Of a stretch of DNA of 64,000 bases, positions 2 to 61,603 are shown piece after piece. Each line of letters starts with the position of its first letter. The first letter of the stretch is position 1. The translations under genes and the position numbers were made by a program. The stretch is from a virus: positions 39,959-103,958 of the IMG/VR virus record IMGVR_UViG_3300028025_004617. The stretch is one strand, 5' to 3'. A model generated the notes under the pieces. That model saw nothing but the letters and a program-made list of their open reading frames with translations, did no database searches and was not told where the DNA came from.

Positions 2-1165
2 TACTTTTGGTGGGTAATTAAAATATCCTTGTCCATTTCTATAAATTGTGGTTACATAAACTTCTGTTGGTGTGTATCCTAAATTATTTGTTAAACCTGT
101 TAATATAAAAGGTTCTTTGAAATCAAATAAAACGGATTCCATCCTATTTCTCTCAACCAAAACATCGTTTTCTCCTGAAAAATTTTCAAAAATTAATTTC
201 TTTTCATCTTCCCATATTGGTGTTTCAAATCCAACCTTATCTAAAATATATGAATTGGCATCTGTTAGTGTTTTATGTTTATGTACGTAATATGTTGATG
301 TTGAACCATTTATGTTATTTCTGTCTAATACTCTTTTTCCCACCATAACATTTGAAAAAGTGGTACCTGATTTTAATTGATTTTTTAAAATATTAATTAC
401 ATAATTTTGTGAATTATGAAATTCATTTCCTACGGTATTAATATAAAATGTTCTACCTGTCACCGTACCCGTTAAAGTGGTTCCTGATAGTGTAACATAT
501 TCACCCGCTTTCATTCCGTGTTCAACAGGACTTGTCAATTCATACATTGTGCCCCCACTATATGAAACCCTAAATGGAATTCCATCACCCGCTTTAAAAT
601 GAACAATATTTGTTCCTTCTGTTTTTGTTGCGCCCGATAATGTATATGTCATCGTGTAACCAGAATCACTACCATAAACATAACTTAAATATACATTCCA
701 ATTTTGGTATGGTGCGGTAATTGGTGTTATAATTGTATGTCCCGTTGGTCCTATTAATTTTAAAGGTGCTTGTGTGTACCCACTTAATGTTGTACCTGTT
801 TGTGGTTCATTATATTCTCTAACAACATCTCTTCTTAATAATGCAAATTCATCATAAGGTAAAAATCCTGTATAGTCAGTTGTCGTTCCATTACCAACCA
901 AGTATAATCTGTCCTTTAAATAAGGATATTCCGTATTACCACTATACATGTTACGGAAAACCATTTTCATTTTACCAAAAATTTTATATTTGTTACTTTC
1001 GTTTCTTTCCTTATCGTATAATTTATCAATATCTAAAATTATATCTCTATCACCGATTCTCATTAATGATTCCGTTGTTTCAAGATTTAATCTTAAATCT
1101 AATTCTTCTGTATCCGCCTTTTTGAATCTCTTACTTGGTAAGAGTATTTTTTTATTCTCTTCCAT
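2..1165 (-). CDS. Partial virion structural protein (runs off the left edge, missing from the ORF track), starts MEENKKILLPSKRFKKAD
   Basis: ATG at 1163-1165 overlaps the upstream TAA (TAATG coupling). Segments translated by hand are in frame and Thr/Gly-rich, with many [ST]GxT motifs. Confidence 0.8.
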   Translation of the reverse strand, partial: MEENKKILLPSKRFKKADTEELDLRLNLETTESLMRIGDRDIILDIDKLYDKERNESNKYKIFGKMKMVFRNMYSGNTEYPYLKDRLYLVGNGTTTDYTGFLPYDEFALLRRDVVREYNEPQTGTTLSGYTQAPLKLIGPTGHTIITPITAPYQNWNVYLSYVYGSDSGYTMTYTLSGATKTEGTNIVHFKAGDGIPFRVSYSGGTMYELTSPVEHGMKAGEYVTLSGTTLTGTVTGRTFYINTVGNEFHNSQNYVINILKNQLKSGTTFSNVMVGKRVLDRNNINGSTSTYYVHKHKTLTDANSYILDKVGFETPIWEDEKKLIFENFSGENDVLVERNRMESVLFDFKEPFILTGLTNNLGYTPTEVYVTTIYRNGQGYFNYPPKV

Positions 1166-4100
1166 TATTCAGCTGATGGGAAGGCTCCTTTTGGCCCATA
1201 ATATTTTATTAATGCATCTAATGATGTCTTATCGGGTCTTAATCCAAAGTAAAACAAGAATGGTGTTGATAGTACTTGTTTATTTCCACCATAATTTGTT
1301 TGTGTTTGGAATAGAAAACTTTCTCTATAATCTTTAACGTACTTATCCGGTTGTTCAACCCACGCCTGATTTACAACAACATATGTTGTACCACTAGCAG
1401 GGTCTTTAACCCATAACGATGTGTTACTTGTAAATCCTGATTGTACATGTAACCAAATATCTCCTTCAACAAATCCAACCGCCGATGTTGTTCCTGTTGG
1501 TGGTGCAGATAAACTAATATTTTCAAATCTTTCCAACATATCTGTTGTGTTACCCGTAAATGAATATTGTGGGTGAGTTATTGTCATTGGTTTTAATAGA
1601 TACTCTTCTTCACCATCTCCCATCAAATAATTTGTTGCGGTTGCAGTAGTACCACTTATTGAAAATAATCTCTGTAATTTCATAGATGCGATTGATGACC
1701 TATCCCATTGTTGGTCATCTTCAACTCCACCACTATAACCACCAAATCCAGTTCCTTTTTTATCCCACAAAAAAAATGGTACTTTTTGTGAATAATCTCC
1801 TAATCTAAAATTTAAACATTGTCTAATAAAGGAACCATTAGCGTCTAATTTTAAGTCAATTGGTGTCGGTCCAAAATTACTTCCACTTTTAAAATAGGTA
1901 GAAAAGTAAGGGTCTTCCGGATCCATTAATTCACCATTATAGATAAAATAATGTGGACTATCTAAATCAAACCCTTCAATACCTGCCTCACAATTTATCG
2001 ACATTAATTGTATGATGTCACCATCAAATGCGCCAACATTATTACCCAATCCATTTCCACTAAAGAAATCACCAACATCGAATTTACCTCCATTTATATC
2101 CAATCTATAGTTTATTGCATATTCCACAATATTTGCCGGATCTTGATATGAAGTTGTATTAACATCTCTAATTACAGAACACGTCGGATCAATTCTTGGG
2201 TCTTGACAAATCTCATATAAAAATTCATCTCTTACTCCAACATCATAAAAAGTTGTTGGGTGTAGGATTTCTCTATGTGATGGTTTATTTAAATTTGGTC
2301 TTTGTCCAATAAATCCACTTGTTGGGTTGTATGGTGTTGCTCTATAATAAAATTGTTGGTCGAGTATATTATAAAAAACCAGCTCTCTTGGATATTTTGA
2401 ACCTCTTTGATTTAAGTCTAAAACATTTACGTCGTCCCATTTTATTCTCTTATCAAATTTAAAAAAGTATAGTACTCCGTTTAACCAGTTATCAATGAAT
2501 GAATAGTTTGTTACTCCACCACAAAAGAAAACACCAACTCTTTTTCTTCGATACCATTCTTTTATTACTGATTGATTTTTAGATGTTCCATCAATAACAG
2601 GAACAATAGTAACAACACCATCTCTAATTTCAGTTAAACCTGATTTTGTTTTTTTAGAATATGAGTTATCTCCACCTTCCAAATCTGCAATTTTTGGTAA
2701 CCTTCTTGTGGATGTTGTTCCCGCAATTGTAGCAACTAATGTATAATTCGCACCGGGACTTGTTGATGATTCGACATATGCTGTACCCGTATAATATGGT
2801 TTACCTAATAAGTGAAATGAGTTAGTTGTTCCACCATAATCATATGATGTTCGTTTTGATGCTTGATACCATCTTGGGCCATTTGGATTACCGGCATTTG
2901 ATACATCTGTTGCGGTACCATAACTTCCAGATGATGACCATAGATATGTCAACACATTTGTTTCATCATAAAATTTATCATATTTTGCACACCCTTGTTC
3001 AATTACTAATTGACCTAATGTTCCGGTTGTTTTTACACTTCCCTTATCGTAAAGTCTAACAACGGCATATAAGTCCTTTATTCTATCGATACCTCCATTA
3101 GAATAATCAACTCCCGCATATGTTGACCAATATGAATATGACATTTTAATTGCTGGAACATTTGTGTATGTTGTTGCACCACCTGTATTATATTCTCTAT
3201 ATGTGCTTGGTGTAAATGACGCAACTCTTTCATATACCTCCACTTGAGTAAATCCACCACCACAATCTATTAATTGTAATGTTGCATATCCACTAGTGGT
3301 TGAACCACTTGGTATTGTTATCGTTTGTGTTCTAAACGTATAGTTACATGGATTTCTAATTAAAAGTTCAACATCTATATTTTCAGTTGCATTTATTGGT
3401 CCTCCCGCCAAATCAACATATTCAGCATAAACACTTTGATTTGGTATAACTGTTATTTTTATTGAATTACCAGTATTTGTTGGTGTTGTTACTGTTACTA
3501 ATTGGAAATATGCATTTAATTGTGTATCAACAAATGAGGAATTAAACTCCACACGCATCTCATTAAATATATCTGTTGCCGGGTCCGTACCAACTAATGG
3601 ATATATACCCCCAATAAATCTTCTTTCCGATGTCGCATTTGGATTAGTGTATGTGTGTAATAATGTAATTTGACTTTCAGTTATTCCAGTTGCGGATGTT
3701 TCTTTTGCCGATTCTCCACTAAACACATCGGGTAAAAATGTCGTACCCGTTGTTGTACTTGTATTTAAATAATTCGGTGTTTGTCCAGAAAGATATACTA
3801 AATAAATAAAACCATCGTATGGTACAACTTTAGTTTTAATTTCAGCACTTCTATAATATAAATTAAGATCACTTAAACCGGCGGTTTGTGTTGCACTATC
3901 AACATCGGTTGTACATTCTTCACAATCCGGATAAGTTGTTAATGGTAAAATTGTTTGACCACCCTCCATTACTCTCATTGCAAACTCCCTTAGTCCGACA
4001 CCAATATTCATTAAATAATGACCACCTAAAAAATTAAATCTCATTGCAGCACCACCCACACTCCACATAACTCTACCTATGGTTTCAAAAACAAATATTT

Positions 4101-60818: not shown

Positions 60819-60823
60819 TCAAT

Positions 60824-61603
60824 ATGAAAAATATAACAGTATTAATACCTATTCACAAAATTAATGAAGATTATAAGGAAATGTTAAATAAAGCTTTAGA
60901 ATCTGTTGAAGATTTTCACAACGATGTTAAAGTATCTTTGGTATGTCCTTCAGAAGTAAAAAAGGAGTTAACTAACTTATCCGATAAATTAGAAATTAAT
61001 TTTGTAGTTAATAAAGGTGAAACAGACTTTTGCTCTCAAGTGAATTTAGGTATCGAAAAATGTGATACGGAATGGTTCACTATTTTAGAGGTTGATGACC
61101 AATTTAAATCAATTTGGTTAAAATCGATTAACGACTATAGAAAAATTTATAGTGATGTTGATGTATTCTTACCAATTGTAAAAGACATCAACTCAGAGGG
61201 AACCTTTGTTAGCTTTACCAACGAATCTGCTTGGGCTTACGGATTTACCGACATGCAGGGATTCATTGACAATGAGGTGCTATTAGAATATCAAAACTAC
61301 CAAATTAGTGGTGGACTTTATCGTACACAAAAAATTAAAGATAATGGTTCATTAAAAGAAAACATTAAACTGACATTTGGTTATGAATTTTTATTAAGAT
61401 TAACCCATAATGGAGTTAGAGTAATGACAGTACCGAGAGTTGGATACCAACACGTTAATCTTAGAGAAGATTCATTATTCTGGTTATACAAAAATGATGA
61501 GAATAGTTTATTAACCGAGAAGGAAGTAAAGTTTTGGTTAGATTCCGCAAAAAAAGAATTTTTCTTTAAAAATAAACGAGATGTAAATTATACCGAAGCT
61601 TAA
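60824..61603 (+). CDS. Glycosyltransferase, GT-A fold (GT2-like)
   Basis: ITVLIPIH, ALESV, NLGIEKCDTEWFTILEVDD, YEFLLRL. Confidence 0.85.
   Translation: MKNITVLIPIHKINEDYKEMLNKALESVEDFHNDVKVSLVCPSEVKKELTNLSDKLEINFVVNKGETDFCSQVNLGIEKCDTEWFTILEVDDQFKSIWLKSINDYRKIYSDVDVFLPIVKDINSEGTFVSFTNESAWAYGFTDMQGFIDNEVLLEYQNYQISGGLYRTQKIKDNGSLKENIKLTFGYEFLLRLTHNGVRVMTVPRVGYQHVNLREDSLFWLYKNDENSLLTEKEVKFWLDSAKKEFFFKNKRDVNYTEA

Follow-up and report, generated by a model that had tools for sequence, protein, structure and literature searches.

A Ser/Thr-Gly-x-Thr motif enriched in the tail-periphery proteins of a jumbo phage lineage: a candidate acceptor site for O-glycosylation

In the general O-glycosylation system of Bacteroidota, exported proteins are modified in the periplasm at the sequon D-[ST]-[ALVIMT]. 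The bacterial autotransporter heptosyltransferases (BAHT) of the Aah/TibC family glycosylate many Ser and Thr residues of β-rich proteins in the cytoplasm, their targets being AIDA-I, TibA and Ag43, and we know of no linear consensus for this family. To our knowledge, only mycobacteriophages have been shown to glycosylate their own particles with phage-encoded enzymes, and no short acceptor motif is known for them; in the phages Che8, Corndog and Myrna, Freeman et al. in 2023 reportedly located the glycans on capsid and tail-tube subunits, at their C-terminal tails, and defined no short sequon. Here we analysed a stretch of 64,000 nucleotides from the virus record IMGVR_UViG_3300028025_004617 (the window), whose structural proteins carry an excess of the motif [ST]GxT and which also encodes three glycosyltransferases (GTs). 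The original prediction for this stretch was that a phage-encoded O-glycosylation pathway coats the virion at [ST]GxT sites.

Like the mycobacteriophage systems, the one considered here combines phage-encoded GTs with the phage's own structural proteins as targets, predicted in this case from the genes alone. It differs from them in that the capsid and tail tube are at background and the four-residue motif is scattered over proteins of the tail periphery. The likeness to the Bacteroidota system lies in a short sequon that would mark many unrelated proteins; however, D-[ST]-[ALVIMT] itself is not enriched in the structural proteins of the window (60 occurrences against 71-77 expected), which agrees with the statement in the original prediction that the host-type sequon differs from [ST]GxT. 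As for the Aah/TibC family, a true member is encoded by a relative of the window phage, but the motif of the window phage has three fixed positions.

The window covers bases 39959-103958 of a single virus contig of 103,958 bp (G000), and the coordinates given below are window positions unless another sequence is named. Profile searches showed that it encodes a T4-like myovirus core, with baseplate and tail genes (gp25, gp6-like, gp48/53-like, the tail tube gp19 and the tail sheath gp18) and genes of replication and metabolism (NrdA/NrdB, a DnaB-like helicase, a UvsX-like RecA, gp32, an SNF2 helicase and a family B polymerase). Contigs of related viruses are up to 298-336 kb long; a 298-kb contig is 95% identical to the window contig, and another relative, G001, has 323,865 bp and is rated 97% complete. 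We conclude from these sizes that the window is a fragment of a jumbo phage. The "moraphages" are large phages of aquatic origin, predicted to infect Flavobacteriia, that have four core GT orthogroups and whose GTs were discussed in general terms with regard to DNA, serotype conversion and the virion, no motif being reported (PMC12619734). The window phage and its relatives probably belong to this group, with Flavobacteriia-type hosts, as they are alike in the T4-like core genes, a late-type sigma factor, a dUTPase, a size of about 300 kb and a conserved set of GTs; the comparison is one of gene content and size.

To count the motif, 25 structural open reading frames (ORFs; 17.8 k amino acids) were picked by position and strand, blind to the motif, and composition-preserving shuffles served as the null. 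The [ST]GxT motif was found 126 times in these ORFs against 35-36 expected (z 15.6-16.8), and in the non-structural ORFs 8 times against 5.4 expected. When the shuffling was confined to windows of 20 or 40 residues, the expectation remained at 35-36, which rules out compositional patchiness as the cause. Five proteins reached p<0.001 each: the partial ORF at 2-1165, the 1526-aa, 700-aa and 1925-aa proteins, and the sheath. The wider motif [ST]Gx[ST] occurs 13 times in the 1526-aa protein, 12 times in the 700-aa protein and 11 times in the sheath, where nine of the 11 lie within residues 115-315, while NrdA has none, PolB two and the SNF2 helicase one. The counts of this wider motif had all been made by hand in the original prediction and were reproduced here, as was the count of 11 [ST]GxT in the partial ORF; the enrichment it anticipated over shuffled sequences held as well. 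Upstream of the window in the same contig, four further tail genes are equally rich in the motif, and three upstream genes contain 16, 7 and 10 sites.

The excess is confined to this particular word. Control words in the 25 ORFs stayed at expectation (T.G[ST] 37 against 35, [ST].GT 43 against 36, [ST]G..T 37 against 35), and neither [ST]G.S (19 against 24-25) nor [^ST]G.T (109 against 120) was in excess. At the first position, Ser was found 65 times against 13.8 expected (4.7-fold) and Thr 61 times against 20.8 (2.9-fold), with no enrichment of Asn or Asp. The second position is Gly only, replacement by Ala, Asn, Asp or Ser giving no enrichment; the third is any residue except Pro; the fourth is Thr only; and the residue preceding the motif is preferentially Leu, Tyr, Val or Ile. 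In an unbiased scan of gapped tetrapeptides, SG.T and TG.T ranked straight after the words of (TP)n linkers. The predicted pattern of three fixed positions around a free x was thus borne out and sharpened at the third and fourth positions.

Three other sources of the excess were considered and rejected. The codons at the fixed positions are mixed (AGT, TCA, ACA and ACG; GGT and GGA), so the constraint acts on the protein and not on the DNA, and a nucleotide-level motif is ruled out. An all-against-all BLAST of the structural proteins revealed one paralogous pair, the PT-linker fibres, and no shared domain that could have spread the motif, in line with the earlier suggestion that it is scattered over unrelated folds in the manner of a sequon rather than a repeat. 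Collagen-like repeats are not its source in the window phage either, since the (G-T/S-S)n tracts of the relatives yield T.G[ST] and not [ST]G.T.

The structural proteins described next are all encoded on the minus strand of the window. The first is a baseplate or tail protein of 595 aa, whose N-terminal 388 aa are encoded at 2..1165 and contain 11 sites against 0.67 expected (SGNT, TGTT, SGYT twice, TGHT, SGAT, SGGT, SGTT twice, TGRT and TGLT); the full gene, at 39336-41123 of G000, has 16 against about one expected. Next to it lies the 1526-aa structural protein (1165..5745; 11 sites against 2.3), which adjoins the gp6-like and gp25 baseplate genes and whose sole domain match is a weak one to a BT_3987-like N-terminal domain. 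The tail sheath (33208..36060; 950 aa) belongs to the gp18 family by both Pfam and PHROG matches and has nine sites against 1.4, eight of which fall in a large insertion at residues ~101-380. The 700-aa protein (44842..46944), of no known family, has 11 against 1.5, the 1925-aa structural protein (18696..24473) seven against 1.4 and the 1567-aa structural protein (24789..29492) five against 1.3. A 306-aa protein resembling Laminin_G_3 and baseplate-wedge proteins (16482..17402) has three against 0.8 (p 0.04), and two proteins of 352 and 486 aa (50021..52553) show a modest excess of three against 0.7 and two against 0.3. In the 995-aa virion structural protein (47027..50014), which is rich in Thr (18%) and has a (TP)n linker, seven sites against 4.4 expected are not significant alone.

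By contrast, no excess over background was seen in the major capsid protein (2 against 0.8), the terminase and portal, or the tail tube and inner baseplate, and in the relatives G001 and G006 the excess is restricted to tail, baseplate, fibre and sheath proteins. The [ST]GxT excess is thereby confirmed as real, strong and specific. As for a virion coated at these sites, any coating would concern the tail periphery, the fibres and the outer domain of the sheath, and not the capsid, portal, tube and inner baseplate.

The same motif was then counted in other phages. All 33 related viral loci showed an excess of [ST]GxT, from 1.7- to 8.3-fold, and in all but two of the 33 the reversed word stayed at expectation; G001 and G006 are both enriched, the 595-aa protein of G006 being only 35% identical to that of the window. 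In T4, the structural proteins have 11 sites against 11.6 expected and the tail fibres eight against 4.9. The Microcystis phage Mel-JY01, which has the only deposited sheath that matches over 82% of the window sheath, has 41 against 51 genome-wide and none in that homologous sheath. These two controls show that the excess is not general to phage tail proteins. The Flavobacterium phage immuto, a myovirus, has 38 against 21. In the 735-kb megaphage LR756501, an independent lineage, the motif is scattered in the same way over nine or more large proteins, with counts such as 22 against 2.0, 25 against 5.0, 15 against 1.6 and 12 against 1.15 and a hydrophobic residue before the motif at a frequency of 0.53; one protein with (GPT)n was set aside from these counts. 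Among the motif-rich proteins of LR756501, PHROG gave one match to a minor tail protein and left the others without annotation.

The sites are gained and lost rapidly among homologs. For the 595-aa protein, 47 homologous loci were found; at some of its sites 30-32 of 33 homologs have the motif, x being variable and Ser and Thr replacing each other, and 38 distinct sites are spread across 29 homologs at 4-18 per protein. Sheaths of 69-100% identity have 42 distinct sites across 42 homologs, 5-14 per protein. Where a homolog in either family has no motif, the Gly position is occupied by Ser, Thr, Asn, Asp, Ile, Val, Ala or Pro, and aligned pairs include TNYP/SGYT, FTFT/SGFT, TDST/SGAT and TDIT/TGVT; such pairs indicate that two changes were needed to make a site. 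The sheath insertion is too divergent from those of Mel-JY01 and G006 for a comparison site by site; the exception is site 590, which lies outside the insertion in a well-aligned region and reads TGTT, TSTT, KISS and SSAI in four sheaths. Since the sites turn over fast and the Gly is often replaced, the fold does not demand the motif, and on the alignments the sites are made again and again although the fold does not need them. Three strict positions around a free x, a hydroxyl at the first position, the occurrence in unrelated proteins and the fast gain and loss together support the view that the motif behaves as a modification site and not as a repeat or a folding requirement.

The AlphaFold models of the 595-aa protein and the sheath were poor overall (pLDDT 41 and 48), with residues 165-295 and 101-380, respectively, being usable. 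In the 595-aa protein (pLDDT 70-83 in this region), S168 and S203 are modelled as the first loop residue after a strand; T171 opens the next strand, and the loop at 203-206 is followed by a strand from 207. Site 266 also lies in a loop, site 227 at a strand end and site 236 in a short helix. In the sheath insertion (pLDDT 63-90), sites 146, 215, 279, 290 and 308 are placed in loops directly after strands, the fourth-position Thr of sites 146 and 308 begins the next strand or bridge, and site 137 comes before a helix. Where the models are confident, most sites are therefore predicted at the start of loops between strands, so that the expectation of loop positions stands for most sites, the sheath sites 121 and 125 in a strand being among the exceptions. 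In T4 gp18, the insertion domains of the sheath face outward; the insertion here may do so too, and a Foldseek search of the sheath model against PDB gave weak sheath matches only and no relative of the insertion domain.

On this basis we propose that a hydrophobic residue followed by [Ser/Thr]-Gly-x-Thr constitutes a positively selected acceptor sequon in exposed β-hairpin loops of tail, baseplate, fibre and outer-sheath proteins, a reading that in our judgement stands about evenly between right and wrong. The acceptor site would be shaped by the Gly and by the Thr after it, with which the strand resumes, and further phage GTs could extend the glycan. The data show the statistics and strictness of the motif, its turnover among homologs, its loop positions where the models are confident, and the range of enzymes; the modification itself, its nature as a sugar and the identity of the enzyme responsible are inferred.

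The best-surviving alternative, though in our opinion an unlikely one, is that the motif is a tight β-hairpin turn peculiar to this lineage, selected for folding or stability and unmodified, while the GTs serve other targets. Its placement at strand-loop-strand junctions, with the hydrophobic residue ending one strand and the Thr restarting the next, would suit such a turn, as would the common spacings of 8-13 residues between sites, which recall β-meanders, the sites kept in nearly all homologs of the 595-aa protein, and a weak 1.4- to 1.8-fold excess that also occurs in phages without close GT homologs. However, turn propensities are universal, yet the fibres and baseplate of T4 and the sheath of Mel-JY01 show no excess. 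A capping role should also accept Asn or Asp at the first position and Val or Ile at the fourth, where only Ser/Thr and Thr, respectively, are enriched. The Ser, Thr, Ile, Val, Ala or Pro found in homologs at the Gly position argues that the backbone has no need for Gly, and the turnover of the 42 sites among sheaths of at least 69% identity speaks against a structural requirement as well.

The three GTs named in the original prediction were all recognised as such by the profile and structure matches and by their conservation in the lineage; they are encoded on the plus strand. The first, a GT-B enzyme of 408 aa (GT408; 55721..56947), matches the PHROG 7162 glycosyltransferase with E 3e-40, its Pfam match to Glyco_trans_1_4 (17.8 bits) being under the cut-off. 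The second is a GT-B enzyme of 353 aa (GT353; 59757..60818) that matches PDB 8XSG (E 1.4e-6), the retaining GT-B glucosyltransferase AmGGT (PMC12159676). The third, a GT2-like GT-A enzyme of 259 aa (GT259; 60824..61603), scores 22.7 bits for PF00535 against a cut-off of 23.3, and its ortholog in G001 passes the cut-off with 28.3 bits. All three are conserved, with 79-97% identity in G001 and G003 and 41-47% in G006. The stop codon of GT259 overlaps at 61603 the start codon of a late-type sigma factor (61603..62301, plus strand; Sigma70_r2, PHROG 234 "late sigma transcription factor"), and GT353 ends five bases before the start of GT259. The overlap couples the sigma factor gene translationally to that of GT259, and the arrangement suggests that the factor switching on the virion genes is expressed together with the GTs.

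GT408 was found at 80 viral loci with 48-100% identity and is a core gene of the lineage; it is present in G001, G003, G006 and the megaphage LR756501 (34%) and absent from Mel-JY01. Together with GT353, GT259 and one further GT2 it is present in the motif-rich G000, G001 and G006, and all four are missing from the motif-free Mel-JY01. Among the GTs, GT408 is the one whose presence best follows the motif, as far as the few genomes compared can tell. The predicted co-occurrence of motif and GTs was accordingly found in G000, G001, G006 and, for GT408, LR756501 as against Mel-JY01, and did not extend to the coliphage phi92 and the Klebsiella phage KP13-16, which have GT408 homologs of 25-30% identity and an excess of only 1.4-1.5-fold. 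With so marginal an excess, we regard these two phages as uninformative for a test of the GT408 family.

The supposition that the three window GTs make up the pathway has to be widened, since they are conserved but the lineage has many more. G001 adds at least 10 GT genes, among them four GT2 and three GT1 matches, a TOD1/MUCI70-like, a GT7C-like and a GT4-FkbM fusion gene, along with sugar-modifying genes for a DegT/PseC-like aminotransferase, a dehydratase/epimerase and methyltransferases.

G001 also encodes, on the minus strand at 242651-244768, a putative Aah/TibC-type (BAHT) protein O-glycosyltransferase of 705 aa. Its residues 342-702 match positions 11-373 of the 374 in the NCBIfam equivalog TIGR04414, scoring 292.4 bits where the cut-off is 200 (E 4.7e-87), and follow an N-terminal extension of ~340 aa. 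The alignment with TibC (4RAP chain A; E 5e-54) showed that LGD, STxQxKYWNN and SGLSW are conserved, as are Asp110, Thr226, Lys230 and Trp305 of TibC (residue numbers counted by hand along the alignment), and all four iron-finger Cys near the C-terminus (CxxC ... C ... C) are aligned. Arg286 is replaced by Ile and Pro300 by Ser, the latter as in Aah. In TibC, Asp110 is the catalytic base, Thr226 and Lys230 bind the phosphate, Arg286 contacts the heptose and Pro300 determines stereoselectivity (PMC4358343). Because of the two replacements, the donor sugar of the phage enzyme may differ.

Genes of this type were found at 78 viral loci and are frequent in jumbo-phage contigs of IMG/VR, while only four of 50,697 deposited phage records have one; G001, G005, G006, G007 and LR756501 (40%) are among the carriers. 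In G001, the gene stands directly beside a collagen-like fibre gene, a methyltransferase and the GT4-FkbM fusion, and the Mel-JY01 enzyme forms a fusion with FkbM and methyltransferase domains. Collagen-like (Gly-Thr/Ser-Ser)n fibre genes lie at 239445-242594, 276680-280894 and 282814-286185 in G001 and at 635-3052 on the plus strand of Mel-JY01. In many viral loci, T.G[ST] is hugely enriched around the Aah/TibC-type gene, since its neighbours are collagen-like fibres with (G-T/S-S)n tracts of ~230 residues. As Mel-JY01 keeps the pairing with no [ST]GxT excess, the conserved partner of the Aah/TibC-type enzyme is the collagen-like fibre, and from the gene order the two look like an enzyme-substrate pair in the manner of aah-aidA. 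The lineage thus appears to have at least two classes of candidate acceptors, the [ST]GxT loops and the collagen-like fibres, besides the (TP)n linkers. As the writer of the motif, GT408 would fit best by co-occurrence and the Aah/TibC-type enzyme of the relatives by biochemical precedent.

The GTs might instead act only on the collagen-like fibres, the (TP)n linkers, the phage DNA or the host envelope, the motif excess having another cause; this we consider rather improbable. Such a restriction would agree with the position of the Aah/TibC-type gene and the GT4-FkbM fusion beside collagen-like fibre genes in G001 and Mel-JY01, with the T.G[ST] tracts flanking that gene, with the abundance of (TP)n linkers in fibre genes and with the location of the window GTs among the dUTPase and PhoH genes. 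It leaves the motif excess unexplained, however, and the presence of the window GTs and the excess coincide in the genomes compared. As regards DNA, hydroxymethyl-pyrimidines could come from a dCMP/dUMP hydroxymethylase, as in T4, or from a C5-methylase combined with Tet/JBP. G001 has a thymidylate synthase homolog of the canonical ThyA kind, with matches to PFNIASY, PPCH and an NCBIfam equivalog, a C5-methylase is present only in G001 among G001, G005 and G006, and no Tet/JBP was found in these three genomes in a search that had no positive control. Nothing in these genes points to a hydroxymethyl base as the GT target, although the DNA may nevertheless be modified.

That the motif is the site of another hydroxyl-directed modification (phosphorylation, O-acylation or a methylation-linked one) or of an assembly or chaperone partner, with no relation to the GTs, seems improbable, for although the strict need for a hydroxyl at the first position and the sequon-like turnover would suit any O-linked modification and several methyltransferases occur in relatives, we recognised neither a protein kinase nor an acyltransferase in the genes examined, the methyltransferases are FkbM-type or GT-fused, which are typical sugar-modifying contexts, and in this lineage GTs far outnumber the other kinds of modifying enzyme.

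Taking the proposed sequon together with the enzymes, we tentatively suggest, somewhat short of an even chance, that jumbo phages of Bacteroidota-type hosts use their own GTs for a cytoplasmic, sequon-directed O-glycosylation, which would lay an evolving glycan coat on the adsorption apparatus and would be separate from the Aah/TibC-collagen module. Several observations weigh against the glycosylation of the motif. The motif is not avoided in the enzymes of the window, and the major capsid protein, which carries glycans in the glycosylated mycobacteriophages, shows no excess of it. The sheath sites 121 and 125 sit in what is predicted to be a long strand, and beyond a single region each model is of poor quality. 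About three independent lineages and the controls supply the co-occurrence of motif and GTs, which common descent confounds and which has no statistical weight as a test; the weak excess in phi92 and KP13-16 adds nothing to it. Furthermore, the Aah/TibC-type gene was not found in the 104-kb contig and, by synteny with G001, would lie outside the fragment; Mel-JY01 has the enzyme yet no excess; and the gene adjoins collagen-like fibre genes in both G001 and Mel-JY01, which may be the cognate substrates of the enzyme. The lack of a positive control in the Tet/JBP search belongs here too.

If the proposal is true, the tail machinery of abundant aquatic jumbo phages would carry a defined and searchable sequon, from which glycosylated proteins could be predicted from sequence and which would offer a simple substrate for assaying orphan phage GTs. 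The role of a sugar-coated tail would then come into question, be it protection from proteases, masking from host defences or adhesion to polysaccharides. Sites gained and lost so quickly would show sequons evolving outside animal viruses too, much as the sequons of animal-virus glycoproteins shift. Phage Aah/TibC-type protein glycosyltransferases beside collagen-like fibres are of interest in their own right. Our literature search found no paper on this motif or on phage-encoded enzymes of this type.

Some further features were seen in the same sequences. A glycan-building island occupies 218779-229859 of G001 and comprises two GT1 genes, GT2 genes, the TOD1/MUCI70-like and GT7C-like genes, a methyltransferase, the DegT/PseC-like aminotransferase and an NAD-dependent dehydratase/epimerase; it suggests the synthesis of an amino-deoxy sugar by the phage, and most of it is absent from G006. 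The (Thr-Pro)n linkers are ~19-fold over-represented in the fibre proteins (TP.P 100 against 5) encoded at 47027-50014 of the window and at 26234-30058 and 33877-36030 of G000. Two of the (TP)n fibre genes have a paralogous segment in common, and the stretches between the linkers have an excess of words made of Cys with acidic residues (DC.F, C.FD).

(Gly-Pro-Thr)n repeats are O-glycosylated in exosporium proteins of Bacillus and Clostridioides, and long collagen-like repeats of this kind occur in a 1196-aa protein of LR756501 (391944-395534), in which genome T.G[ST] is found 1810 times against 569 expected. In Mel-JY01, the plus-strand collagen-like gene runs in frame into the annotated coding sequence 2519-3052, and the minus-strand coding sequence 739-2298, with PxVPE repeats, is apparently its antisense. 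Finally, among the fibre genes of G001, positions 273031-274698 encode a protein of 555 aa that consists of 26% Gly and has runs of 6-8 Gly.

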